DNA from: an uncultured Candidatus Saccharibacteria bacterium
GTDB lineage: Bacteria; Patescibacteriota; Minisyncoccia; Phycocordibacterales; Zambryskibacteraceae
Direction of reading: 5' to 3'
Assembly (NCBI GenBank): GCA_964651655.1
Contig: CAZYVS010000001.1
Coordinates: forward strand, 5,132 to 69,131
DNA length: 64,000 nucleotides
A program made the translations under genes and the position numbers. Below are positions 4,690-23,953 of the stretch, in pieces; the first letter of the stretch is position 1, and every line of letters starts with the position of its first letter. The notes under the pieces are model-generated. The model was not told the DNA's origin and did no database searches. It was given only the letters and a program-made list of their open reading frames with translations.

Positions 4690-5202
4690 TTACTGAAGGC
4701 GCGGTAACAGAGAGTCTTCCTCATTATAGATGAGCTCGTCGCAGAAGAGGGATACGCCCCCTCTGTTAAAATTCCTCTTCCCGATATCAATCCTGATACC
4801 CCCATAATGTTGTGCGAGCATGAGAAACTCATCTATATCGTCCTTTCTGGAACTTGCCTCCGCAAGCATTCCAACCTCCACCCCACCTTCCAACCCTCTG
4901 ATTCTTGAAAGAGGCGGATAAAGGTTGAGTAGAAATCTTCTGTCGGTTTCGAGGTAAAAATAAATCTCTACCTCGACTATTCCGCGTGTTTCGTCAAAAA
5001 ACACATAGGGCGATTGGCCGAGCTCCCTCATTCTCCAGCACATAATCAACACTGGAGGAAGTTGGGGTAAGGGATATTCGATATCTATCACAGGAACAAC
5101 CTCTGTCGCCTCTTTTACGTGGCGCAAAAAGATTTTGTTGGCCTGACCCTCAAACCAAACCAGCGTTTTGCCGTCATTATCAAGAAAGCGAAACATAGAC
5201 AC
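4690..5202 (-). CDS. hypothetical protein
   Basis: 170-aa ORF, no recognisable motif. Lies immediately downstream of the glycogen gene cluster on the same strand. Confidence 0.35.
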   Translation of the reverse strand: MSMFRFLDNDGKTLVWFEGQANKIFLRHVKEATEVVPVIDIEYPLPQLPPVLIMCWRMRELGQSPYVFFDETRGIVEVEIYFYLETDRRFLLNLYPPLSRIRGLEGGVEVGMLAEASSRKDDIDEFLMLAQHYGGIRIDIGKRNFNRGGVSLFCDELIYNEEDSLLPRLQ

Positions 5203-5296
5203 CCCCTTGTTTAATTACCAACAATACCAGTGTTATTTCTATCTTAATACACCCTCTCATAATAATAAGTAAATTTCAAGAGAAATAAAAATATGT

Positions 5297-6796
5297 TCAA
5301 GTTCCCCTCTGTTCCGGTTGGCCGCCGCGCAGTTCGGCATATTTTTGTTTATATTGTGCTATCGTCTTCTCCACTTCTTCGTTAGGGATTTCTACTCGCA
5401 ATAAATCTATAGCATTAATAGTGTCATAAATATCAAGCTTGTTTTCCAATTTATACATGGCATCGCGCCAGAGTATGGCCTTTTCGTATTCACCTCGCCT
5501 AGCCGCTTCATGTTCAAGTTTTTTCATCATATCAATAAATGCGTCATACACACCTTGTTCTGCCCCGCCGCGGCCAATGGTGCGATCTTTGAACGGGATA
5601 CGCAGAATTGAGTGCTGCTCTTGCATCATGGTTCGGATACGTCCGGTGCGTTGCCAATTAAAGGCGGTTGATATTATTTTTTCATAAAGTTCGCGCGCTT
5701 CGTCAATAGTTTTTTCCGGCACATTGGGCACCATACGAATAGTTTCAAGAAGGCGGTAGGCCCCGTCCTCAATCATTTCCACGCTCCACCAAGGTTTGGC
5801 CGAGGCCCACCAGAAATGATCACTGGCTGTCGCGATGTCCATTTTCTTTTTTACTTCGGGGAAAATGATGTCGTTCTTATCCATCGCCTCCACTTCTCGG
5901 CGAACCAGATGAAAAAGTTTCCACTGCCATTTATGAATTTTATTTTCCGGATCATTCCAAGAAAGAAATTGGATACCGAGATCAATATCGTTTTTGCTTG
6001 AGGCCCAGGTGGAAGCGATGGGAAGAAGTTCCTCTATTTCGCGCTTATCTTCCAAAAGGTCGGAAATTTTAACTAAATTAAAATCTGTCGTATCAAGAAT
6101 ATTAAAAAGCATTTTTTCGAGTCCGGGTCTATGGTGCCCAAACGTCTCGCCGTCCATAGCGGTGATAATGTAGTGTAAACTCCCGGGCTCATTCTTCATC
6201 GCTTGATGGAGAGTTTCTTTGGAACGCACAACGGCGCTCATGATAAGATTGCTCAATCGCCGTTCACGGAAAAATACCAGAAGTTTTGAATCCTTAATTT
6301 TATAAATTTTCGTATAATTCACTCGGCCGGCTTCGCCCTTGGCGGCTATTTCATCAATAATAATCCATTCAAAGCCAAGCGATTCAATAATGGGAGTCAG
6401 GCGGTTGTCCCAGGCCATTTCGGGAGGAAAAAATCCGCGCGGGTGATACGCTTTGCCCCCGAGATAAAATAAACAAGCGCTATTATTAGTTTCAATCTGG
6501 CGACGGATATCTTCTTCTTCAAGCAACGGTAAAAAAGCGTGATACTTCGCGCTGCCGGTGAATTCAATTTTTCCTTCTTCGCCTCCTTTTTTGAGCATAC
6601 TTAAAAGGTCGTGATGCCGGTATTTATCAAACAGTTCCAGAAGCGCGCCATTGATATTTAAAGTGACGCGAGTCTTGGGAGATTCTGTCAGATGTGTCAG
6701 AATCGGCCGGTAACTCTGGACGACGATAGATTCAAGTATATCGGGTTGCTGATCAGCCGGTTGGTATATGTGTAAAAAATTGGCCCATTTCATCAA
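5297..6796 (-). CDS. glycoside hydrolase family 57-like alpha-glucan enzyme (branching enzyme / 4-alpha-glucanotransferase type)
   Basis: N-terminus 'ANFLHIYQP' resembles the GH57 'HxHQP' start. Length of about 500 aa fits. Co-oriented with glycogen synthase and alpha-glucan phosphorylase. Confidence 0.55.
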   Translation of the reverse strand: MMKWANFLHIYQPADQQPDILESIVVQSYRPILTHLTESPKTRVTLNINGALLELFDKYRHHDLLSMLKKGGEEGKIEFTGSAKYHAFLPLLEEEDIRRQIETNNSACLFYLGGKAYHPRGFFPPEMAWDNRLTPIIESLGFEWIIIDEIAAKGEAGRVNYTKIYKIKDSKLLVFFRERRLSNLIMSAVVRSKETLHQAMKNEPGSLHYIITAMDGETFGHHRPGLEKMLFNILDTTDFNLVKISDLLEDKREIEELLPIASTWASSKNDIDLGIQFLSWNDPENKIHKWQWKLFHLVRREVEAMDKNDIIFPEVKKKMDIATASDHFWWASAKPWWSVEMIEDGAYRLLETIRMVPNVPEKTIDEARELYEKIISTAFNWQRTGRIRTMMQEQHSILRIPFKDRTIGRGGAEQGVYDAFIDMMKKLEHEAARRGEYEKAILWRDAMYKLENKLDIYDTINAIDLLRVEIPNEEVEKTIAQYKQKYAELRGGQPEQRGT

Positions 6797-15180: not shown

Positions 15181-15897
15181 TCAAGGTTGAACCTTGATAA
15201 TCCGTTTTATAATTGTATGGATAAATTTTAATACCACGTTCTCCGTATCTATATAGTCATCATTTTGAACAGCAATAAACATTTTTTCTTCAGCGAGCAC
15301 TTTCACATTTGTACTTTCAACAGTGGCACCGGAAATAATACTTGGGCTAGATTCTGTCGCCACCGCCATAGGTCTTGATGTTTTAGGTTGAGGAATAGGC
15401 CGACCAAAAAGCTGAACAATATAAATGCTCTCTTGGCCATTATAGACACCGGGCGCAAGAGCTATGCCAATCTCGGTGAATTTATCGTTAAGAATATTGG
15501 CGCGATGTCCTTGAGAATTCATCCAGGCGCGCACCACATCTTCCGAATCTATAAAGTTAATTGCTAAATTTTCACCCGCATAGAGAAAATCATAACCGCC
15601 TTGGGAAAACCAGTACCAGGGAGATTTGCCTTCGGGACTAGTGTGAGCAAAGTAATTCTTCTGCGCCATATCATTGGCCTTTAATTGAGCGGCGGCGGTC
15701 AGAATGGGACTAAACTCCAGCGGATTCAAATTTTGAGAGAAACGATTTGAATTAGTCAGGTCGAATAAGACTCCGGTGATAACAGCTGAAAGTAAATTAG
15801 GACGATTTGCAATGAGAGATTTGGTGGAGAAGACCAATCCAAAAAGAACAACTGCTAGAAAAGCGATGCCTATGAGATTTCTAAGTCTCTTTCTCAT
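15181..15897 (-). CDS. CAP-domain (SCP/PR-1/YkwD-like) secreted protein
   Basis: N-terminal TM/signal. 'AHTSPEGKSPW...WMNSQGHRANILNDKFTEIGIA' matches CAP-domain His/Glu signature positions. Confidence 0.55.
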   Translation of the reverse strand: MRKRLRNLIGIAFLAVVLFGLVFSTKSLIANRPNLLSAVITGVLFDLTNSNRFSQNLNPLEFSPILTAAAQLKANDMAQKNYFAHTSPEGKSPWYWFSQGGYDFLYAGENLAINFIDSEDVVRAWMNSQGHRANILNDKFTEIGIALAPGVYNGQESIYIVQLFGRPIPQPKTSRPMAVATESSPSIISGATVESTNVKVLAEEKMFIAVQNDDYIDTENVVLKFIHTIIKRIIKVQP

Positions 15898-15921
15898 CCC
15901 TCTGATTGTACTTGAATATAA

Positions 15922-18708
15922 CTATCTTCCAAAGGGTCTCACGATCTGGGAAATACGTTTTTGTTTAAAAATATTTTTCAGCAGATCAATAAGTCCCTCT
16001 CTCGGCGGCGGGGGCGGATTGATTGGAGTATCGTCGATATTGTCAAGGTTAGTATGGATATCGTTATCGTCTAGTTTGGCTGGAGGAATTTTATTTCGCG
16101 CCGGAGTTTTGTCAATTGCGACAATGATAGCCGGGGCATTTGGATTCTTGGACCACGGAACCAGAGGCGGTATTTGGAGCGCGAGTGCCGGACATTCCAG
16201 CATATTTATCCAACGTAAAGTCGTCTGATACGCGATGCCGGTGGATGTATTCAGACCCCATGGAGCGAGAATTTCACGCGGATATTTCTCTTGAAAGGTC
16301 TTAAGCGCATTGTACGTAAGAGGACCATAGACGCCAGTTACCGGTAAACCGGCGCCCATTTCCCCGTTCAAGAACTCTTGTAATTTCATAACTTGTTCCA
16401 CGTCATTATCAGCGCCATGGCGGATAAATTTATCCATATAAAGACCGCAGCTTACCCCAAGAACTTCGCCCTTACTTTCCACCGTGACACGAGAAGAAGC
16501 GACACCCGAAGAAGCATCGGTGCTTAAGTCAGGGTCTTGAAGGTAATCTCCTCCCAAGGCCTCAACCCAAGCGGTATTCGTATAAACACCCGGAGTGGTG
16601 CTGGCATTAAAGATTGCCGTGTAGGTAATAGTAATCTCTTCATTCGGAAAAATTTCACCAAGTTCCCAATTATTTTTGGTTATAATCTTGCCGTTTTCAT
16701 CTTTAAGAACATCATAGAGAATTCCTTCAAAAGCGGAACCGCCTTTATTTTCAATCACAATCGTGTAGTCCACGGTGCTCGAAGCGGTAATATCTGTGCC
16801 GGTGGCGGAATTTGTTTTGGTTATATAAAGAGAGGGATAGGTGCTCGCTTTCGTAACGCTTTCGTAAGAAATTGATCTGCCGAATGACCGTAAGCGACGA
16901 GCCAAAAGAGAAACTGTATCGGAATTATCGGCCGGGTTACCGTCGGTTTCATTGGCTGAAACTTCAAACGCATGGTCAATCAGAGTATCTCCATATGGCA
17001 AACCGCCATTCACTTTTGCCCGATACGAAAATTCTTTTATCTCGCCGGGCAAAAGGTCTCCTACTTCCAGGGAGTATATTTCATTTTGGTCCCCGCCTTC
17101 AAAACTGATGTGTGGTGAGTCGAAACTTCCATTAAATCGTACATTATGAGCCGAGGCATCACCACGATTGGCGACTGTAGTATGGAAGATGGGTTCCGAG
17201 CCCGGGCCAAGAATCTCTGGTCCTTCCACTTGCGAAGCCACCCAGATGTCAGGTTGGCCGAATGAGACATTACCCGACCAATCTCCAAAGATGTTAATGA
17301 GCGCGATAATCCAGTTGGAACTTATAACATTGGTATTGGCAACATTCAAAACGTTTGCTCCGGCATAAGCATTACCGGTGTTGATAGAAGCCGTACCACC
17401 CGCGCTCGTTGCCTTGTTTTCTCCCGTGAGAGCGAATACTTTGACGTTATTTCCGATGTTAGCGGTATTATTAGTTTTCACGTCAATACCTCCCCCACCT
17501 CCGGCACCATCTTCGTTCGCCCCATCATTAGAAAAGAGTTCAATACCGGATGGCGTCTCGGTCCAACTTATTCCCTCCGGCGCATTGAAGACCGAACCGT
17601 TCCAGTTGCCGAAGATTCTAAAGACAACAAAGAATGTGGGAGCGTTGACAAGATTGGTGTTGATAATATTTGCGACGTTACTGCCAGCCACAGCATTGCC
17701 GGTTTCAATTAAACTTCCATCGCCTTCCGTTTCGTTATCTCCGGTGTTGGCCGAGGTTTCCACTTCATTTTCAACATTAGCTGAATTGGTATTGGAAATA
17801 TTTGCTCCGCCGACCGTAGAAAACGGGGTGAAGAAATTGGAGAAAAAGTCCGAGTTCGGGAAGATGAGGTCGCCGTTCCACCCGCCGAAGTTGTTGAAAG
17901 CGAAGAGTAGATAATTTGAGTTGATAATATTGGTATTGGCAACATTGACCACATTGGCGCCAGCGTAAGCGTTACCGGTGTTGATCGAAGCGCCATTACC
18001 ACCCAAAGCAAAGTTCTGCCCGGTTGAAGAACGCACGATAACCACGTTTGAAATTGTGGCATCATTTTCCGTCTCTACTTTAAGAGTGGAAGCAAGGCCG
18101 TCGCAAGTTGGAGTGCCGCAGGGATTGTCGGAATTTGGAGGTGCTTCAGAAGAAGTTATGGGCCGGAGATCAATATGTCCAAGTGACTGGAGAAAATTAT
18201 TAAGAAGATACAAGAAACCGTTTGATTCAACCAGATTAAGATTGACCACCGAGACCACATTGGCAGAAGCATAGGCGTCGCCTGTCGTAATTAGAGTCTC
18301 GTTCGTTGAGGAAGCGTTATTCTCTCCCGTCGCGGCAGTAGTGGTGGCCTCATTTTCTACCACGCCTTCGTTGTTAATTAAAACATTCTCGTTCTCCGCC
18401 GGCAGAGTCTCAACTTCAACTACATTTACGTTGACACTGCTCTCCGTGTCAGTTTCCGCCACAGCATCGCCAGTATCTATAATTACTTCTCCGTTTGAGA
18501 TAGCTTGCTCCTCTTCAAGTACTGGCTCTGGCACCGTCTCCTCTACTACTACCGGCGCCTCTTCAACACTTGGCGTCTCTTCTACAATATCCTCGGCCTG
18601 AACTTGTAAGGGATACACCGGCGCTAGAATTAACGACCAGATAACTACTCCGGCGGTTAAACGTTTAGCTGTCTCCCAAGTATTAGACTGTAAAGATTGA
18701 AAAAACAT
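15922..18708 (-). CDS. large secreted surface protein (928 aa) with repeated 'TGNAYAGANVxNVANTNxI' modules and C-terminal peptidoglycan-binding-like domain
   Basis: Signal peptide. At least four copies of an approximately 35-aa motif: 'TTGDAYASANVVSVVNLNLV', 'NTGNAYAGANVVNVANTNII', 'ETGNAVAGSNVANIINTNLV', 'NTGNAYAGANVLNVANTNVI'. C-terminal 'GVYGPLTYNALKTFQ' is a PG-binding-like stretch. Pro-rich tail. Confidence 0.6.
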   Translation of the reverse strand: MFFQSLQSNTWETAKRLTAGVVIWSLILAPVYPLQVQAEDIVEETPSVEEAPVVVEETVPEPVLEEEQAISNGEVIIDTGDAVAETDTESSVNVNVVEVETLPAENENVLINNEGVVENEATTTAATGENNASSTNETLITTGDAYASANVVSVVNLNLVESNGFLYLLNNFLQSLGHIDLRPITSSEAPPNSDNPCGTPTCDGLASTLKVETENDATISNVVIVRSSTGQNFALGGNGASINTGNAYAGANVVNVANTNIINSNYLLFAFNNFGGWNGDLIFPNSDFFSNFFTPFSTVGGANISNTNSANVENEVETSANTGDNETEGDGSLIETGNAVAGSNVANIINTNLVNAPTFFVVFRIFGNWNGSVFNAPEGISWTETPSGIELFSNDGANEDGAGGGGGIDVKTNNTANIGNNVKVFALTGENKATSAGGTASINTGNAYAGANVLNVANTNVISSNWIIALINIFGDWSGNVSFGQPDIWVASQVEGPEILGPGSEPIFHTTVANRGDASAHNVRFNGSFDSPHISFEGGDQNEIYSLEVGDLLPGEIKEFSYRAKVNGGLPYGDTLIDHAFEVSANETDGNPADNSDTVSLLARRLRSFGRSISYESVTKASTYPSLYITKTNSATGTDITASSTVDYTIVIENKGGSAFEGILYDVLKDENGKIITKNNWELGEIFPNEEITITYTAIFNASTTPGVYTNTAWVEALGGDYLQDPDLSTDASSGVASSRVTVESKGEVLGVSCGLYMDKFIRHGADNDVEQVMKLQEFLNGEMGAGLPVTGVYGPLTYNALKTFQEKYPREILAPWGLNTSTGIAYQTTLRWINMLECPALALQIPPLVPWSKNPNAPAIIVAIDKTPARNKIPPAKLDDNDIHTNLDNIDDTPINPPPPPREGLIDLLKNIFKQKRISQIVRPFGR

Positions 18709-20051: not shown

Positions 20052-20882
20052 CTATCTTCGAACGCGAACGATATTGGTATTCACTGTGTTTGATACACCT
20101 GAATAGGCACTCGCGTTGCCGGTAACGACCGTGCCACCGTTGCCACCGTTAGCGGTACTGTTAGCATCACCACCATTTTTGGTTTTGGCCTTGCTCTTGG
20201 CATTGCCGCCTTGAGAGGCATTGTTGCCAGTTGAAGCCGAAGTGCTGACATTGTTGATGACAGTGGTGTTCTTGTTCTTGATGTCCACGTGAACATCACC
20301 GCCACAACATTTAGGCGGACAAGTCTTGACTTCAAATTTATATAAGAGTCCAGCTGGATTTGTACTTACGTTGTAAGTACCGACATTTTTTACTTCAATC
20401 CGTAGCGTATGATTCCCCGGTGTTACATTTGCCGTGAGATTATAAGGATCCTGTGTGGCGAGTGTGAAGTTCACGCTATTTATATCTCCCGCAACCGGCA
20501 CACCATCAATGAAGACCTCGTAGCTATTATCGGTGGCAATATCTAACTGCGCGGACAGTACCGTGCCAGAGACTGTAAAGTTCTGTTCGAACGCCACTAC
20601 TTCATTAGCCGCAGTCGCGCCGGATTTCCAAATCCAAGTCGCTCCCGGAATTGATGCCGTCCAAGCCGGGTGAACAGCCACCGCTGCTGGACTGCCTCCT
20701 ACAACAGTCGTGGTCAAGTCACTCACAGAAGTTTCAGTGACTGGGTTTGTGCATTCACAGGGAGGTGGAACAGGGTCGGCAAAAGCTGTTTTAATACCGA
20801 CTAGCAACATGGCGGACATGGCAATGATCGCCGCCATAATAATTATTTTGTGTAAATAATTATTTGTTTTATATGAATCCAT
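20052..20882 (-). CDS. small secreted repeat protein (276 aa), paralog of the same module family
   Basis: TM/signal. Cys-containing Ig-like middle region. C-terminal 'ASTGNNASQGGNAKSKAKTKNGGDANSTANGGNGGTVVTGNASAYSGVSNTVNTNIVRVRR' is nearly the same module and the same terminal RVRR as 19268..19858. Confidence 0.55.
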   Translation of the reverse strand: MDSYKTNNYLHKIIIMAAIIAMSAMLLVGIKTAFADPVPPPCECTNPVTETSVSDLTTTVVGGSPAAVAVHPAWTASIPGATWIWKSGATAANEVVAFEQNFTVSGTVLSAQLDIATDNSYEVFIDGVPVAGDINSVNFTLATQDPYNLTANVTPGNHTLRIEVKNVGTYNVSTNPAGLLYKFEVKTCPPKCCGGDVHVDIKNKNTTVINNVSTSASTGNNASQGGNAKSKAKTKNGGDANSTANGGNGGTVVTGNASAYSGVSNTVNTNIVRVRR

Positions 20883-20939
20883 ATTTTTAAGTTTATTAAT
20901 TATTAATTTTTATGATTATTAATATCTACATACGCAAAA

Positions 20940-20962
20940 GCCACACGAGAAAACCGTGTGGC
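20940..20962. terminator. hairpin with T-run (terminator-like)
   Basis: GCCACACG-agaaaac-CGTGTGGC followed by TTTTATTT on the + strand. Lies between mini-gene units. Confidence 0.35.
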
Positions 20963-21168
20963 TTTTATTTCTAACTTTTCTTTTGTGTGGGAAACTCGTT
21001 GCATATCGCAAACTCACATATCTTCCGGTTTCCCCTCGAAAGATATCGTCTCTGAATACCCCTGTATTTTATATTCAACCGTTTCCCTGTGTCAAACCTA
21101 CTTATCCACATTACGGACATCAGATTTTCATAATTGCGATATAATAGAAATGACTTAATTCTGTAAAG

Positions 21169-21248
21169 AAAAACTCCCAGAAGGGACGCTAGATGGGAAA
21201 CTGACCCCTTTCAGGGTAAGTAATCTAACGTCCCTTCTGGGAGTTTTT
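21169..21248. repeat. 80-nt structured element: 20-bp perfect inverted repeat with 40-nt internal hairpin-containing spacer
   Basis: AAAAACTCCCAGAAGGGACG ... CGTCCCTTCTGGGAGTTTTT. The spacer contains CTAGAT/ATCTAA and an ACCC-CTTTCA-GGGT inner stem. Located in an approximately 600-bp non-coding stretch. Confidence 0.5.
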
Positions 21249-21436
21249 GCATATATAATTCGTATGTATTTGGAAAGGGCTGATTTTTCTGTCAGAAGAA
21301 TACACTTATGACCTTTAGATGTCAAGGACTTTTCCAATCTGCATATTTTGACCCTTCAAAAATAACTCTGCATAATTTAAAAATAATCTGTCCTTTATCT
21401 TCTTACCCATACCCCCACACAAGACTTTTATAAAAA

Positions 21437-21466
21437 CGAAACGGGGGCGCGATTGGCCCCCGTTCG
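21437..21466 (-). terminator. intrinsic terminator of ORF 21480..21797
   Basis: ACGGGGGC / GCCCCCGT stem, extendable to 12 bp. Followed on the minus strand by TTTCGTTTTTAT. Confidence 0.5.
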
Positions 21467-21479
21467 AACCAGACACCAC

Positions 21480-21797
21480 TCATGTTCTCTCCCCTCTTTG
21501 GTAGAGAACGATTAATTTTCCATTTACCTTTCTGGAAATTAACTCGATATCGTTATCCCGAAAGGTCCAATAATTCACTTCCACCATACGAATCTTAGTC
21601 ACAACCCAAAGATCCGCTTTGGTGAAATGAAGTATTGCTACCGCAAGAAAAGGAGCGAGTAGAATGGTCTCACGTTGTTCCGGTTGTTCCGCCTTCATCT
21701 CTTCCTTCAGATCTTGCGGTATTTGAGAAACTTGCGCTGACACTACCGTTATGTCACCAATGGCGAGAAACAAGGCAATTATCACCATTTTTCTCAT
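21480..21797 (-). CDS. hypothetical small secreted protein
   Basis: 105 aa with an N-terminal signal peptide. Has its own downstream terminator. Confidence 0.35.
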   Translation of the reverse strand: MRKMVIIALFLAIGDITVVSAQVSQIPQDLKEEMKAEQPEQRETILLAPFLAVAILHFTKADLWVVTKIRMVEVNYWTFRDNDIELISRKVNGKLIVLYQRGERT

Positions 21798-21874
21798 ATG
21801 ACCTCCTTCCTTCTTTCTACCAATCTAAAACAAATAATACACTCGTATTTTATATTTACCACAAACAAAAAAGA

Positions 21875-21908
21875 GGGCCGAGGGCTGATAATCGCCAGCC
21901 CTCGGCCC
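21875..21908 (-). terminator. intrinsic terminator of ORF 21924..22226
   Basis: 13-bp perfect stem GGGCCGAGGGCTG / CAGCCCTCGGCCC. On the minus strand it is followed by TCTTTTTTGTTTG. Confidence 0.5.
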
Positions 21909-21923
21909 GTTCCCCATCCTCAT

Positions 21924-22226
21924 TCACACCTCCCCGAAATTAAGAGCTAACTGGACATGTACACTCTGTTTGGCGAGCGATTCCTCTTCCAAACAAGAAA
22001 TGTGATATAACCCACCCTTGTGACTTATGGCATTTCTGCCGGTTATGTCCACAAACTTCCGACACCATATGCATGGCGAGCTCTTAATGAAAAGCTCGTA
22101 GCAGTCGGGGTGCATCACCCCAATCGCCACTTCGACATGCCAATCAGACTCATCCACCTCCCTTATACATCTCGCGTAAGCGCAACAAGCCATAATATTA
22201 GCCTCCTTCCATTTTTGCTGAACCAA
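21924..22226 (-). CDS. hypothetical Cys/His-rich small protein
   Basis: 100 aa. Multiple Cys and His ('MACCAYARC', 'HPDCYE', 'CIWCRKF', 'HISC') suggest a metal-binding fold. Confidence 0.35.
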   Translation of the reverse strand: MVQQKWKEANIMACCAYARCIREVDESDWHVEVAIGVMHPDCYELFIKSSPCIWCRKFVDITGRNAISHKGGLYHISCLEEESLAKQSVHVQLALNFGEV

Positions 22227-22323
22227 TTTGAACTAAAATGTCTATTTTCATTATATACTTTATTATATAAAAGATTAAGCGGAGACAATATTGTCTCCGC
22301 TAGACCACCTCCTTTCTAACTCG

Positions 22324-22569
22324 TTAATACACGCTACCGGAGCGTCGCCGGGCCAACCTAGTCTGCGTAGACTTAAAGCGTTGCAGGATATCGCGGCGCC
22401 GGGTAAGCTTAACCTCTGAAATCTCAAGCCGTCTTGTTTCGAGCTTAAAATACCCGTTGTATCCGGAGTATCCTATGTTCGTATTCGGCACCGTTTGTCT
22501 GGCCTCATAAACTTTCCCATCTTTAACAAAAAAGATCTTGCATCCCAAGGGCCAATTCTGACGTTTCAT
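22324..22569 (-). CDS. hypothetical small protein, 'DGKVYE...RRRDILQRF' family, paralog A
   Basis: 81 aa. Strong SD 'GGAGGAAAAATG' and an upstream TATAAT. Shares motifs with ORF 22817..23059. Confidence 0.4.
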   Translation of the reverse strand: MKRQNWPLGCKIFFVKDGKVYEARQTVPNTNIGYSGYNGYFKLETRRLEISEVKLTRRRDILQRFKSTQTRLARRRSGSVY

Positions 22570-22670
22570 TTTTCCTCCGATCTTAACTTAAAAACCAAAA
22601 GTCTATTTTAATTATACACATATTGATTATACAAAAAAGAGACCGGATGGCCTCCGTATTGGATGGGGAA

Positions 22671-22697
22671 CCGAGAACCGGCATTGTCGGTTCTCGG
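22671..22697 (+). terminator. hairpin with T-run on plus strand
   Basis: CCGAGAACCG-gcattgt-CGGTTCTCGG followed by CTCCATTTTTTA. Confidence 0.35.
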
Positions 22698-22816
22698 CTC
22701 CATTTTTTAGGTAGGAAGGGGCTGGGATTCCCCCTGGCAAGGAGGTAGATATGAATCACCTCCTCTCTTAGCAAGTTCCGATACCCATTCCAACACCCAT
22801 GGGGTCGTCCATAAAT

Positions 22817-23059
22817 TCATCGTACCAACTTTCGTCGGTGCTTCCCAACCCCAAAGCGTTGCAGAATATCGCCACGTCTCGCTGGCTTAATCCGTTCTGT
22901 TTTGGGTTGTCTTTCAACTCGAACGGAGAAATCAGTGACACTCCAGTGATATAAAACGGAGAATTTGTGCTCATACACCCTCCCATCTGTTCCCTTACGA
23001 AACTCCTTACAGGGAGATGCCTCACTTTTTTCTTCTTCGTCATCCTTCTCCTCCTTCAC
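22817..23059 (-). CDS. hypothetical small protein, 'DGRVYE...RRGDILQRF' family, paralog B
   Basis: 80 aa. Shares 'DG[KR]VYE' and 'RRxDILQRF' with 22324..22569. The overlapping alternative frame 22768..23043 is not conserved at the paralogous locus. Confidence 0.35.
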   Translation of the reverse strand: MKEEKDDEEEKSEASPCKEFRKGTDGRVYEHKFSVLYHWSVTDFSVRVERQPKTERIKPARRGDILQRFGVGKHRRKLVR

Positions 23060-23261
23060 TTTCTATATTTCCTCCCCTCTTTTTTCCCATTCCACCAGTA
23101 TGCAACATCCAGCCAATACCACTGGATGTTGGCGCGCAGAACCCTCCAGAGCGCTCTCATGTTTCCTCCTCCTTTCCCTATATAATCCTTCATCTACGGC
23201 AGTCTAACCCCATAATACACCTGCACTTTCTTATCTGCTACTAGAGTTGAAGTGGGTTGAT

Positions 23262-23582
23262 TTATTTAACACGCAGACGAGCTGCGATAGCAAAGTGTAT
23301 AAAATATCTCTCAAGGTCTGACAGACTCGTCTTGTATTTGTTCTCTCCCCAAATAATATCGCAGAAAATTTCTCTAGCTCTTCCCACCTCTCGCAACCGA
23401 CCAAGCCATCTTCTATCTCTAAGAGTTAAGTCAAAGAGTTCTAAGGCTCTATTGGCCGCACTGAAAAAACCATTAGAATCCTTACCATCAAGTTTAGCCA
23501 CTCTCCCAACTTCACTACCGATGTTACCCATTTGCTCAATAAGAGAAAATTTGTCCCAACTTTCCTTAAGACTTTCTCGCAT
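23262..23582 (-). CDS. hypothetical all-alpha small protein (possibly MazG-like NTP pyrophosphohydrolase fold)
   Basis: 106 aa. Second gene of a two-gene minus-strand cassette with a 5-bp spacing. 'IEQMGNIGSEVGRVAK' and 'ALELFDLTL' loosely resemble MazG-like EExxE/ExxD helices. Confidence 0.3.
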   Translation of the reverse strand: MRESLKESWDKFSLIEQMGNIGSEVGRVAKLDGKDSNGFFSAANRALELFDLTLRDRRWLGRLREVGRAREIFCDIIWGENKYKTSLSDLERYFIHFAIAARLRVK

Positions 23583-23587
23583 AAAAC

Positions 23588-23953
23588 TTACTGTTTTACT
23601 CTAGTATTTACAATTGATATTATTTTTTTTCGTACGGCTTCATCTTCTACTCCACGGCTAGTATTACCCGAAAGTGGTTTCAGATTTATCATGGAGTCAA
23701 ACTCAATACATTGATTTCCAGTTTTATCAAGATTTAAATTGATACCCCAAGTATTGTCTCTTTTAGAACCCTTCGTTTCAAGTAATAAAGTCTCGAGGTC
23801 AGAGTGGAATTCTCCCCCCAAAGCCATAATTTCCTGTTCTACATCAATGACTGCTTTGATAATAGTGATAAATTGTTCATGAGCGAGAGTTTTGAGCGTT
23901 TCAAGAGTAATGCTATCCTCAACAATTTTAATCCTAGTTTTATCGTTATCCAT
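23588..23953 (-). CDS. hypothetical protein
   Basis: 121 aa. First gene of the two-gene cassette. No recognisable motif. Confidence 0.35.
   Translation of the reverse strand: MDNDKTRIKIVEDSITLETLKTLAHEQFITIIKAVIDVEQEIMALGGEFHSDLETLLLETKGSKRDNTWGINLNLDKTGNQCIEFDSMINLKPLSGNTSRGVEDEAVRKKIISIVNTRVKQ

Follow-up and report, generated by a model that had tools for sequence, protein, structure and literature searches.

A conserved minus-strand array of small transcription units downstream of murA, including a candidate dual-coding gene, in a Zambryskibacteria-like genome

Positions 20883 to 23260 of the window, by which we mean the whole 64,000-nucleotide stretch of DNA analyzed, appear from their sequence to hold a vertically inherited chromosomal array of micro-units, each transcribed on its own and all on the minus strand, in a Zambryskibacteria-like Parcubacteria (CPR) genome. 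One of these units, B, is most likely a dual-coding gene, predicted to encode a basic mini-protein (B1) and, in the +1 frame, a second, acidic product (B2). Taken as a whole, a conserved micro-unit array with B as a dual-coding gene is probably the best explanation of the locus. All the evidence is comparative and was drawn from eight B-type lineages in about five independent groups.

Along the minus strand, the array consists of a 34-aa mini-ORF, B and a structured 3' element, followed by A, which is a paralogue of B1, a LIM-like protein, a 105-aa protein, a rod-shaped small RNA and the leader of a surface-protein operon. ORFs of useful size in 20883-23260 were found only on this strand (23059-22817, 22569-22324, 22193-21924 and 21797-21480), and only 52% of the region is protein-coding. 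The initial annotation had described a gene-poor stretch of small ORFs, which was confirmed, the four products being 80, 81, 89 and 105 aa long. Its view of individually insulated mini-genes outside core metabolism held as well, each having its own promoter-like box, Shine-Dalgarno (SD) sequence and terminator. A box of the form (A/G)GTGTAT(T/A)NT precedes each unit, and the promoters of the array are candidates based on consensus match and conservation. Terminator-like hairpins with T-runs were located on the minus strand at 21465-21439 (105-aa protein), 21908-21875 (LIM-like protein), 22301-22278 (A) and 22655-22638 (B), and terminator-like sites in the region numbered 9, as compared with 3.6 ± 1.9 expected. 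The terminator stems proposed earlier in the 21437, 21875 and 20940 regions stood, whereas the one at 22671 corresponds to helix P3 of the 3' element, the B terminator lying at 22655-22638. The A terminator, the +1 ORF of the B locus and the 34-aa mini-ORF had been overlooked. Conserved promoters and terminators of the array are all co-directional, and no conserved plus-strand promoter was found in it. Some of the hairpins are bidirectional.

The array lies directly downstream of murA, which shows 85% identity to Parcubacteria / Zambryskibacteria metagenome-assembled genomes (MAGs), and is syntenic in at least eight lineages. This location is constant in the Zambryskibacteria-like subclade, the gene order after murA being the same in lineages L001-L007, L014, L017 and L033-L035, and both position and order are fixed across lineages with saturated synonymous sites. 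The GC content (0.428, versus 0.442 for the window) is native. Searches for viral relatives of the array and for matches to defence or phage families returned none; no transporter, immunity, integrase or mobile-element gene adjoins it in the window, and neither a transporter nor a protease gene was found within 19.5-25.3 kb. Within the flank downstream of murA that was examined, the cassette was present in only 2 of 17 related species-representative genomes.

A (22569-22324, minus strand) encodes 81 aa with a pI of 10.8, is preceded by the SD GGAGG and ends in an in-frame basic tail, RLARRRSGSVY; a promoter-like sequence, TGTGTATAAT, lies at about 22611-22620 on the same strand. B1 (23059-22817, minus strand) starts with GTG and encodes a basic protein of 80 aa matched by the family profile. 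The proposal that the two are paralogues was supported by BLASTP (37% identity over 49 aa, E=5e-5), with DG[KR]VYE and RRxDILQRF in common, and the family pattern can be written 'C-x-FF..G-x-VYE..[VI]ER..RRRDIxxRF'. The suggested search for DILQRF-family homologues did recover them through the A/B1 profile; the family is very rare, since 1.84e9 representatives contained only 14 matches at E<1e-3, of which 12 are proteins 56-126 aa long (about 12 clusters), and Pfam, PHROGs, PADLOC and NCBIfam contained none. Orthologues of A share 60-68% identity. The suggested selection test placed the protein frame of the paralogues under purifying selection (dN/dS ~0.1-0.3), with values of 0.11-0.31 for A and 0.11-0.30 among close orthologues of B1. 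Since homologues exist and the protein frame is constrained, neither of the two outcomes named beforehand as fatal to the initial annotation, a family without homologues or a frame free of purifying selection, was observed. A and B1 are very basic (pI ~11; 11.0 for the B1 core) and hydrophilic from residue 1, and no hydrophobic N-terminus, signal or leader sequence was found in them. The nucleotide block reported as common to both loci is indeed present, as 19 nt at 22376-22394 in A, where it covers the codons for (R)DILQRF, and at 22854-22872 in B1 (both minus strand), inside a longer direct repeat (38 nt, 76% identity). Across orthologues this block shows synonymous variation and even amino-acid changes (GATATT/GATATC/GACATT, CTG/ATT/GTG). 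Because it is the coding sequence of the signature RRxDILQRF, the most conserved peptide of the family, and is synonymously variable, it is not the RNA motif that had been considered as an alternative. A and B1 might bind nucleic acid through an Arg-rich C-terminal helix.

The B unit has a promoter-like extended -10 box, GGTGTATTAT, at 23208-23224 (minus strand), proposed from consensus match and conservation, the core of which, GTGTATTAT, is invariant in an alignment of five lineages. Upstream of B1 lies a Trp-rich mini-ORF of 34 aa, MRALWRVLRANIQWYWLDVAYWWNGKKEGRKYRK (23056-23160, minus strand), with a strong SD (AAAGGAGGAGG) 5 nt ahead of its ATG. Its stop codon overlaps the GTG start of B1 (GTGA), which couples it to B; orthologues occur in L001, L014, L033, L034 and L036, with pN lower than pS in every pair (dN/dS 0.18-0.9). 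At its other end the transcript carries the structured 3' element (22632-22767, minus strand), delineated with RNAalifold and a covariance model and composed of P1 (GGAGGUG/UACCUCC), P2 (GGGG/CCCC with a UCCC loop), P3 (a 16-bp hairpin, 22667-22701) and the terminator P4 (22638-22655). RNAalifold on six lineages gave 40 pairs, 13 of them with compensatory changes. Wherever DNA of a B-type locus was available, the covariance model scored 127-149 bits, with two exceptions: L034 carries a plain terminator in this place, and the L036 contig is cut. The element has no match in Rfam. Large structured hairpins had been predicted for the region, and the folding scores of this element (z = -5.0) and of the rod RNA described below (z = -9 versus shuffles) agree with that prediction.

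B2 (22974-22768, minus strand) is a +1-frame ORF of 68 aa that overlaps B1 and has an acidic tail, GLGSTDESWYDEFMDDPMGVGMGIGTC. Its start ATG sits inside the conserved Tyr-Glu codons (TATGAR) and is present in all eight B-type lineages, in each of which the Tyr codon is TAT. From this internal ATG the +1 frame is open in 8/8 B-type lineages versus 1/5 A-type genes. Upon synonymous randomisation, the probability of an open frame was 0.12-0.59 per lineage, with a conservative product over five groups of 1.2e-3, a statistic (~1e-3) that is moderate because the eight lineages fall into about five independent groups. The internal SD, GGGAG[GAT], stands 4-5 nt ahead of the B2 ATG in the seven B-type genes aligned, and AAGGGGG stands at 6 nt in L036, so that the embedded ORF appears to possess its own start codon and ribosome-binding site. 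A spacing of 4-5 nt is short and counts against an internal start. A longer form of B2, of 91 aa from 23043, is also possible. B2 has a pI of 4.1, opposite in charge to the core of B1. The arrangement is the same in L036, the distant eighth lineage, and a sequencing error is excluded as the cause of the frame offset, since the same offset occurs in eight independent assemblies. Public gene calls report B2 in this organism and B1 in others, never both together.

At B, the frame under selection changes immediately after DILQRF, the B1 frame giving way to +1. Over the N-terminal and middle part, comparison of the window with L007 gave 9/6/25 substitutions at positions 1/2/3 of the B1 codons, and three independent pairs together gave 32/23/45 (p=0.025). 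In the B2 tail, three independent pairs gave 5/6/24 at the +1-frame positions (p=5.5e-5); between L017 and L034, changes were not clearly concentrated at third positions in either frame (12/6/9). The tail has a pN of 0.10-0.37 versus a pS of 0.31-1.0 (above 0.65 in nine of ten pairs), and its alignment gaps are whole codons (6 and 15 nt). Its motif, D-x-S-W-x-D, exists in two types, [ST]-D-x-S-W-x-D and P-D-D-(S)-W-x-E, with synonymous changes between lineages. The tail runs on past the B1-frame stops in L007, L033, L034, L001 and L036, and these stops fall at differing places (K-stop, Q-stop-stop, H-stop, P-stop, V-stop-stop). The middle of B2 has a dN/dS of 1.8-2.0 and is therefore not selected as protein, and the N-terminal 40 residues show no amino-acid constraint, as would also be expected under a +1 frameshift model. 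Purifying selection is thus carried by the body of B1 in one frame and by the tail of B2 in the other, the overlapped part of B2 being unconstrained. In the mechanism that we propose, ribosomes would also initiate at the ATG of TATGAR, with GGGAG from the Asp-Gly-Arg codons as ribosome-binding site, and produce B2; its first ~40 residues would need only the absence of stops, the acidic Trp-containing tail being the selected part. B2 may be an acidic partner or antagonist of B1, made from the same mRNA.

The switch in selected frame could alternatively reflect a programmed +1 frameshift just after RRxDILQRF, yielding a single fusion of the basic domain and the acidic tail, with B2 having no independent start. 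Such a shift would account for the change of frame exactly at the domain/tail junction and for the unconstrained overlapped part of B2, and A-type genes do carry domain and tail in a single frame. Each lineage has a shift-prone candidate site, UUU_GGG_G in the window, L017, L007 and L033, CUU_AGG in L034, and CCC_UGA in L001 and L014; we take the L034 site to be the Ty1 heptamer and the two others to be shift-prone motifs. However, no slippery site is common to all lineages, three different mechanisms would be required, and the junction and the stop position vary between lineages in place of a fixed slippery codon with a 0-frame stop or hungry codon. Nor does any SD-like stimulator of the prfB kind stand at the required distance, about 3 nt ahead of the shift codon. 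A stop-directed shift would omit the D-x-S-W motif in the window, L017 and L036, where the B1 stop comes only after it. Frameshifting also leaves unexplained the +1 frame kept free of stops over the whole B1 body in the B-type but not most A-type genes, as well as the invariant TAT codon, and we consider it unlikely. It is very improbable that B1 is the sole gene, with the sequence after DILQRF acting at the RNA level as part of the 3' element, or persisting as an inherited frameshift relic, and the +1 frame opened by chance. The tail directly adjoins a strongly conserved structured RNA and the per-lineage probabilities of an open frame are not small, but the +1-frame codon periodicity and whole-codon gaps of the tail, and a peptide motif common to both tail types although synonymous sites are saturated, are those of a coding sequence, and the alifold structure starts only after the B2 stop codon.

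The Cys/His protein encoded after A (22193-21924, minus strand; 89 aa, or 100 aa from a TTG at 22226) is a LIM-like double zinc finger. Its residues C4, C9, H19, H28, C31, C41, C44, H64 and C67 are invariant in seven clusters, and its dN/dS is ~0.2. Eight of them form two sets of zinc ligands (C4, C9, H28, C31 and C41, C44, H64, C67), ordered CC-HC / CC-HC; the nearest known counterparts are the LIM domain and the treble-clef double zinc fingers related to it (RING/PHD). The AlphaFold2 model has a pLDDT of 75; a PDB profile search matched the LIM domain of FHL1 (E=3.7e-5), and the top Foldseek hits to the model were nearly all LIM domains, which suggests that the zinc sites are sequential and not cross-braced. 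The spacing observed, CX4C-X18-HX2C-X9-CX2C-X19-HX2C, differs from the canonical CX2C-X16-23-HX2C-X2-CX2C-X16-21-CX2(C/H/D) of LIM domains (PF00412). Against the Pfam gathering threshold, the window protein gave no match at E<=1 and the best E of seven members was 0.01 (three members); the protein is a LIM-like two-zinc finger outside the LIM family as so defined. Its gene comes after an A/B gene in every lineage that has one and has downstream DNA, and its product may act as an adaptor in the A/B module. The 105-aa protein (21797-21480, minus strand) bears an N-terminal segment, MRKMVIIALFLAIGDITVVSAQ, that was judged by eye to be signal-peptide-like; it looks secreted, the only such protein in the array. 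Orthologues were found in L001, L005, L007, L014, L017 and L034, with a pN of 0.27-0.38 and saturated pS.

The two remaining units are predicted RNAs, apparently undescribed before. The rod-shaped small RNA (21164-21262, minus strand; ~100 nt) has an apical GAAA hairpin, an asymmetric UUCCC loop and a U-run, and is preceded by a conserved promoter, TTGACA-17-TGTATTCT (21297-21325, minus strand), whose parts AAAAGTCCTTGAC and AAGTGTAT are invariant in five lineages. The perfect 20-bp inverted repeat noticed initially at 21169-21248 (arms 21169-21188 / 21229-21248) is real and belongs to this RNA, where it is embedded in longer arms (38 nt, 84% complementarity). L001, L014/L032 and L017 carry an almost unchanged hairpin, and L023 a diverged one (90.8 bits); pairing extends to 97.7% of cells, as against 58% at most in slid controls. 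There are just two compensatory pairs, the observed covariation being matched by 29/500 shuffles. That this RNA is read from the minus strand follows from its G-U pairs and from the scores of the covariance model (110-117 versus 44-56 bits). No Rfam family was found for it; SRP RNA (RF00169) was sought at gathering score across the window and at E<=5 in 20800-23300, with no match in either case. The leader unit (20930-21095, minus strand), directly upstream of a surface-protein gene (20882-20052), comprises a promoter, TTGACA-18-TAAAAT (21095-21066; 11/12 promoter positions match), a leader of ~125 nt (21058-20930) and a terminator with 12-bp perfect arms (20966-20936). The leader is conserved in five lineages, and its predicted alifold structure has an 8-bp helix formed by GGGAAACC and GGUUUCCC, an inner hairpin showing AU<->GC covariation, and the terminator. 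With a promoter, a structured domain and a terminator immediately ahead of an ORF, it is a candidate riboswitch- or attenuator-like leader for the cell-surface protein operon. As read from the sequence, an upstream CCACAC duplicates the 5' arm of the terminator and could pair with its 3' arm. The rod RNA and the leader have GUUUCCCA in common, complementary to the leader loop GGGGAAAC, and could form a trans/cis pair controlling the operon.

The initial annotation had placed the stretch among accessory regions, coding for secreted effector peptides or antisense-regulated modules. A horizontally acquired accessory island of this kind, with secreted effector/bacteriocin-like peptides or antisense (type I toxin-like) modules and the shared block as RNA motif, would be in keeping with small, individually insulated genes, with bidirectional hairpins, with the signal-peptide-like N-terminus of the neighbouring 105-aa protein and with the sparse distribution of the cassette among related genomes. 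Yet place and order by murA are fixed in lineages with saturated synonymous sites, GC is native, and the window contains no adjacent transporter, immunity, integrase or mobile-element gene and no viral or defence homologues, so the accessory setting was not supported. The effector peptides fared no better, A and B1 being basic proteins that lack a signal or leader, with no transporter or protease gene in 19.5-25.3 kb, nor did antisense regulation, the conserved signals being all co-directional. With the block varying synonymously as well, we regard the island as the least probable of the readings considered. A fuller version of the dual-coding reading is plausible, though we hold it only tentatively: B would be obligately dual-coding for a basic nucleic-acid-binding protein and an acidic partner started within its signature, kept across deep CPR-subclade divergence, the pair working with the LIM-like protein, with the rod RNA and the leader as a possible trans/cis pair.

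From the locus come two protein families that had no annotation, the RRRDIxxRF mini-proteins and a LIM-like zinc finger in bacteria, together with a nearly invariant small RNA and a candidate riboswitch upstream of surface-protein genes. These components are possible entry points to CPR cell-envelope regulation, a little-known subject.

Several known systems resemble parts of the array. No recognisable toxin or antitoxin domain and no family match of the type II toxin-antitoxin kind was found; B2 is embedded in the B1 gene where such partners are adjacent, A-type paralogues have no partner, and the B locus is fixed and syntenic. Programmed +1 frameshifting is of the prfB (CUU_UGA_C) or Ty1 (CUU_AGG_C) type. 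B resembles both in having a conserved C-terminal segment in +1 after an early 0-frame stop, and CUU_AGG (L034) or CCC_UGA (L001/L014) at the junction; it differs in lacking a common shift site or an SD-like stimulator at the required spacing, and in a 0-frame stop that varies in position and follows the conserved +1 motif in three lineages. RsaE and RoxS are independently transcribed, Rho-independently terminated small RNAs with C-rich single-stranded motifs. Like these and 4.5S/SRP RNAs, the rod RNA has a promoter of its own, ends in a long hairpin followed by a U-run, and shows a GNRA loop at its apex and an exposed UUCCC, but it is nearly all one helix (27 + 8 bp), and its conserved motifs lie on the opposite side of the tetraloop from those of SRP domain IV.

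The closest comparison for B is with bacterial overlapping genes, of which comS inside srfA in Bacillus subtilis and rpmH/rnpA in Thermus are examples. Long same-strand overlaps are thought very rare in cellular genomes and are discarded by annotation pipelines. Phages and viruses often have same-strand embedded ('overprinted') genes, of which few bacterial cases are on record (PMC8227390, PMC5810103, PMC8850804, PMC8665328). As in those cases, B1 and B2 lie on one strand in different frames, with almost all of the smaller gene inside the overlap; the older, constrained domain belongs to B1, and B2 is unconstrained in the overlap and constrained beyond it, and annotation pipelines report just one of the two. 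The published bacterial cases come with translation data; B1/B2 is predicted from sequence comparison. B1/B2 also differs from overprinted genes in that the start and SD of B2 are built from B1's own signature (DGR-x-YE), both products are shorter than 90 aa, and the pair is kept in at least five divergent groups of a cellular lineage with saturated synonymous sites. With several divergent lineages and a clear frame switch in selection, it is a comparatively clean, testable case of overlap, which, if true, would show overprinting even in minimal CPR genomes.

All sizeable ORFs in the stretch 20883-23260 lie on the minus strand and encode two basic mini-proteins, B1 (23059-22817, 80 aa) and A (22569-22324, 81 aa), a Cys/His-rich protein (22193-21924, 89 aa) and a 105-aa protein (21797-21480). 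A terminator-like hairpin on the same strand follows each gene (22655-22638, 22301-22278, 21908-21875 and 21465-21439); nine terminator-like sites were counted in the stretch, as compared with 3.6 ± 1.9 in shuffles, and a hairpin with 12-bp perfect arms lies at 20936-20966. Protein-coding sequence makes up 52% of the stretch, no more, and the GC content is 0.428 against 0.442 in the window. The ORFs, terminator stems, shared nucleotide block and inverted repeat described in the initial annotation were all found. An alternative genetic code with UGA as a sense codon was ruled out, since TGA terminates 5 of 30 long ORFs and B1 of the related locus L007 stops at TAG. SD-like GGAGGTG motifs occur within a few bases after the stops of the A gene, the Cys/His gene and B2, an ORF overlapping B1 (22305-22320, 21912-21922 and 22760-22768, respectively, in the window). 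In two of the three cases a usable start codon is absent downstream, and the motif could be a translational-coupling relic or a 3'-end structural element.

The cassette lies after murA (25333-23969), which shares up to 85% identity with Parcubacteria and Zambryskibacteria MAGs. Contigs L008-L012 are identical to the window, with the same gene order after murA, and the cassette was recovered in the same order and position in L001-L006/L013, L007, L014/L015/L032, L017, L033, L034 and L035. L036 is a short contig carrying an upstream mini-ORF, a zinc-ribbon gene and B, with no murA. A scan of GTDB species representatives with the Cys/His profile gave no locus and was replaced by a murA scan: judged on the available flank downstream of murA, among the 17 species representatives whose murA is related, only 2 (L017 and L032) contained the cassette, which indicates restriction to a subclade. 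The JGI metagenome scan yielded 3 loci only, and in viral-contig scans nothing matched the small RNA, the A/B family or the Cys/His protein. The cassette does not look mobile; its fixed position after murA and the lack of viral relatives speak against the accessory region suggested initially, and the reading as a secreted-effector locus was not upheld either. Lineage-specific genes were observed in or beside the array. In the window lineage only, a DUF5674 gene (23953-23588, minus strand; Pfam E=8e-27) and a 106-aa ORF (23582-23262, minus strand) separate murA from the B unit (23262-23953) and resemble an insertion specific to that lineage. In L014 the small RNA is set apart from the 105-aa homologue by an insertion (4802-6164) with two genes on the reverse strand, of 234 and 222 aa, and L035 has an insertion with a Fic/RhuM-domain gene (4790-5803).

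A and B1 proved to be paralogous, as proposed from their common DILQRF signature, with 37% identity over 49 aa (E=5e-5). Searching 1.84 billion cluster representatives with an A/B profile gave 14 matches at E<1e-3, 12 of which are proteins of 56-126 aa, and the consensus reads C-(K/R)-x-F-F..G-x-V-Y-E..(V/I)-E-R..P-T-R-R-R-D-I-x-x-R-F. No relative of the family was found in Pfam, PHROGs, PADLOC, NCBIfam or the PDB, and scans of all the mini-proteins against Pfam, PHROGs, PADLOC and NCBIfam returned nothing. Among orthologues dN/dS was 0.11-0.31 for A and 0.11-0.30 for the body of B1, indicating that both are protein-coding and under purifying selection. The 19-nt block shared by the two genes (22376-22394 and 22854-22872) encodes (R)DILQRF and varies in orthologues both at synonymous sites and in amino acid (for example GATATT/GATATC/GACATT and CTG/ATT/GTG/ATA), which argues against the RNA motif considered initially. 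A-type members end in a basic in-frame tail, RL-x-RRRSGS-x-Y. A single family member in L017 (6396-6708) and in L034 (4980-5271) joins an A-like N-terminal half (CRIFFVKKGVVYE..YSGYY) to a B-type +1 tail, and is either an ancestral form or an A-B recombinant.

Three-frame translations revealed that both frames of the B locus are open in every B-type lineage; for the window organism and for L007, gene callers took a frame other than that of B1. Between the conserved Cys and DILQRF, substitutions at B1 codon positions 1/2/3 were 9/6/25 between the window and L007, and 32/23/45 in three independent pairs (p=0.025). After DILQRF, the counts by +1-frame positions were 5/6/24 (p=5.5e-5) in three close pairs that are independent of one another, and 25/22/64 with deeper pairs added. 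Selection accordingly passes from the B1 frame to the +1 frame at this motif. The overlapped middle of B2 has a dN/dS of 1.8-2.0 and is therefore not selected as protein. The B2 tail showed pN of 0.10-0.37 versus pS of 0.31-1.0 (>0.65 in 9 of 10 pairs), and pN of 0 versus pS of 0.34 between L001 and L014. Changes in the +1 tail are synonymous and alignment gaps are whole codons (6 and 15 nt), and the B1 frame stops at varying places after RF (GVRK, RTKKH and TSERP before one stop, GVRKQ and ..KLV before two). Two types of tail were distinguished, G-L-x-S-(S/T)-D-x-S-W-x-D-x-x-M-(D/E)...C and D-P-x-F-(L/I)-P-D-D-(S)-W-x-E-L-C-(F/I)-E-V, both ending at the stop.

As to how the +1 frame is reached, the Tyr-Glu codons (TATGAR) build an ATG in all eight B-type genes. 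Asp-Gly-Arg/Val codons place GGGAG(G/A/T) 4-5 nt before this internal ATG in 7 lineages; the corresponding site in L036 is AAGGGGG, 6 nt before the ATG. No other ATG separates the internal one from the upstream +1-frame stop in L033 and L036. From the internal ATG to the tail the +1 frame is stop-free in 8/8 B-type versus 1/5 A-type genes; under synonymous randomisation the probability of an open frame in a single lineage was 0.12-0.59, which multiplied conservatively across five groups gives 1.2e-3. The internal ATG, the SD-like site and the stop-free frame favour independent initiation, and we thus favour B2 as a predicted overlapping gene with its own start (22974-22768, N-terminus MSTNSPFYITGV..., tail peptide region DVAIFCNALGLGSTDESWYDEFMDDPMGVGMGIGTC, pI 4.1). 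A +1 programmed frameshift from B1 into the tail is an unlikely route: it needs different slippery sites per lineage (UUU_GGG_G, CUU_AGG, CCC_UGA) and would omit a conserved motif in the window, L017 and L036. Transcriptional slippage was ruled out because the junction lacks a homopolymer run, and a short tail-only ORF because no common start codon lies near it.

With B2 regarded as a separately initiated gene, it would be an acidic partner that shares its mRNA with B1. A (pI 10.8) and B1 (core pI 11.0) are putative small nucleic-acid-binding proteins, judging from their charge and from the Arg-rich helix that accompanies three strands in a weak AlphaFold2 model (pLDDT 62), for which no significant structural neighbour was found; the Cys/His zinc finger would be an adaptor in the A/B module. 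The relationship may be toxin-antitoxin-like, but no family match supports this.

The B gene is followed by a structured 3' element (22767-22632, minus strand) of four hairpins, P1-P4. In P1 and P2 the sequence itself is conserved (GGAGGUG...UACCUCC and GGGG-GAAUCCCA-CCCC), P3 (22667-22701), already noted as a stem at 22671, has 16 bp with many compensatory changes, and P4 is the terminator. Covariation was detected at 13 of 40 pairs, and the element has z = -5. A covariance model found the element in every B-type locus with available DNA except L034, where a plain terminator replaces it, and L036, where the contig is cut. The module of P3 and terminator also follows other mini-genes in L007 and L035.

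Upstream of B, a Trp-rich mini-ORF of 34 aa (23160-23056, minus strand) is preceded by a strong SD and ends in a stop codon that shares bases with the GTG start of B1 (GTGA). It is conserved in L001, L014, L033, L034 and L036, and its tandem WW (..YWWNG..) was seen to be conserved; it may encode either a leader peptide or an independent small protein. A 10-bp hairpin at 23100-23145 (CAACATCCAG/CTGGATGTTG) overlaps it and was ruled out as an RNA element: it lies inside the mini-ORF, with pairing partly kept in L001/L014, and was treated as coding. In L007 (4197-4367), L034 (4814-5020) and L036 (~455-620), B is separated from the mini-ORF position by an additional gene, which is zinc-ribbon-like (CxxC...HxC: CENCG...HQC / CPTCG...HIC) and encodes 55-68 aa. 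The window appears to keep a remnant of its first codons only (MGKKRGGNIESEGGEG and a stop, ~23040-23090).

The initially described 80-nt element, with its perfect 20-bp inverted repeat (21169-21188/21229-21248), is a predicted small RNA gene. Its promoter (21325-21297, minus strand) is a conserved TTGACA-17-TGTATTCT, and the rod, of 27 + 8 bp, carries an apical GAAA loop as well as an asymmetric loop of sequence UUCCC and is followed by a U-run. Its assignment to the minus strand is supported both by the G-U pairs and by the scores of the covariance model (110-117 bits on the minus versus 44-56 bits on the other strand). Across L001, L014/L032 and L017 the hairpin has hardly changed, despite saturated synonymous sites in neighbouring genes; covariation is thin (2 compensatory pairs, matched by 29 of 500 shuffles), and pairing holds in 97.7% of cells versus at most 58% in slid controls. 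A 10-nt pairing of the rod loop with the 'KDGK' codons of the A mRNA is absent in L001 and was rejected as coincidence, the chance expectation being about 0.16 such matches by our own estimate. Further downstream, a leader of ~125 nt (within 20930-21095, minus strand), conserved in five lineages, starts from a promoter at 21095-21066 (minus strand; 11/12 positions match) and lies directly upstream of a surface-protein gene (20882-20052). It contains an 8-bp GGGAAACC/GGUUUCCC helix, a covarying inner hairpin and a terminator (20966-20936), a layout typical of a riboswitch or attenuator. Two sequences are complementary to the leader loop GGGGAAACC: GGUUUCCC, further downstream in the leader, and GUUUCCCA, a loop of the neighbouring small RNA. 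L023 carries the small RNA and the leader without the mini-genes. Rfam searches, at the gathering threshold on the window and at E<=5 on 20800-23300, returned tRNAs and chance matches only, with no family for the B 3' element, the rod or the leader. The surface or secreted proteins in the run after the leader (20882-20052 and 19858-19268) end in TNIVRVRR. Downstream of this run, 15184-18708 (minus strand) encodes a CAP/SCP-family protein (Pfam E=7e-20) as well as one of 928 aa in which the peptidoglycan-binding domain is weak, which points to a cell-envelope neighbourhood.

Taken together, the sequence comparisons support the anatomy of the array, its coding status, the frame switch and conservation. 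What appears new is a conserved and probably dual-coding micro-gene, together with a small RNA, a candidate riboswitch and two protein families that lack annotation; literature searches on Zambryskibacteria, on gene overlap in Patescibacteria and on LIM domains in bacteria brought up nothing specific.

The Cys/His gene comes after an A/B gene in every lineage having one, where downstream DNA is available. In other lineages the start of an extra gene of 62-85 aa (..FLFTC.INHLH.P.KIR.KCLKIRCHNLI..) is coupled to its stop (L001 2272-2460, L007 5493-5750, L033 1914-2141, L035 3353-3547), and a 32-aa vestige of it overlaps the terminator in the window (21825-21923). The Cys/His protein ends in ..LALNFGEV (21924-21955), kept as ..LALNFEEV in the divergent zinc protein of L035; the B2 tails of L001, L014 and L036 end in ..ELC(F/I)EV, so that an x-E-V C-terminus is common to both. 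The protein forms seven clusters in all, with a dN/dS of ~0.2, and C4, C9, H19, H28, C31, C41, C44, H64 and C67 are invariant in every cluster. Its spacing, CX4C...HX2C-X9-CX2C...HX2C, departs from the LIM rule, and we therefore named it LIM-like and not a LIM member.
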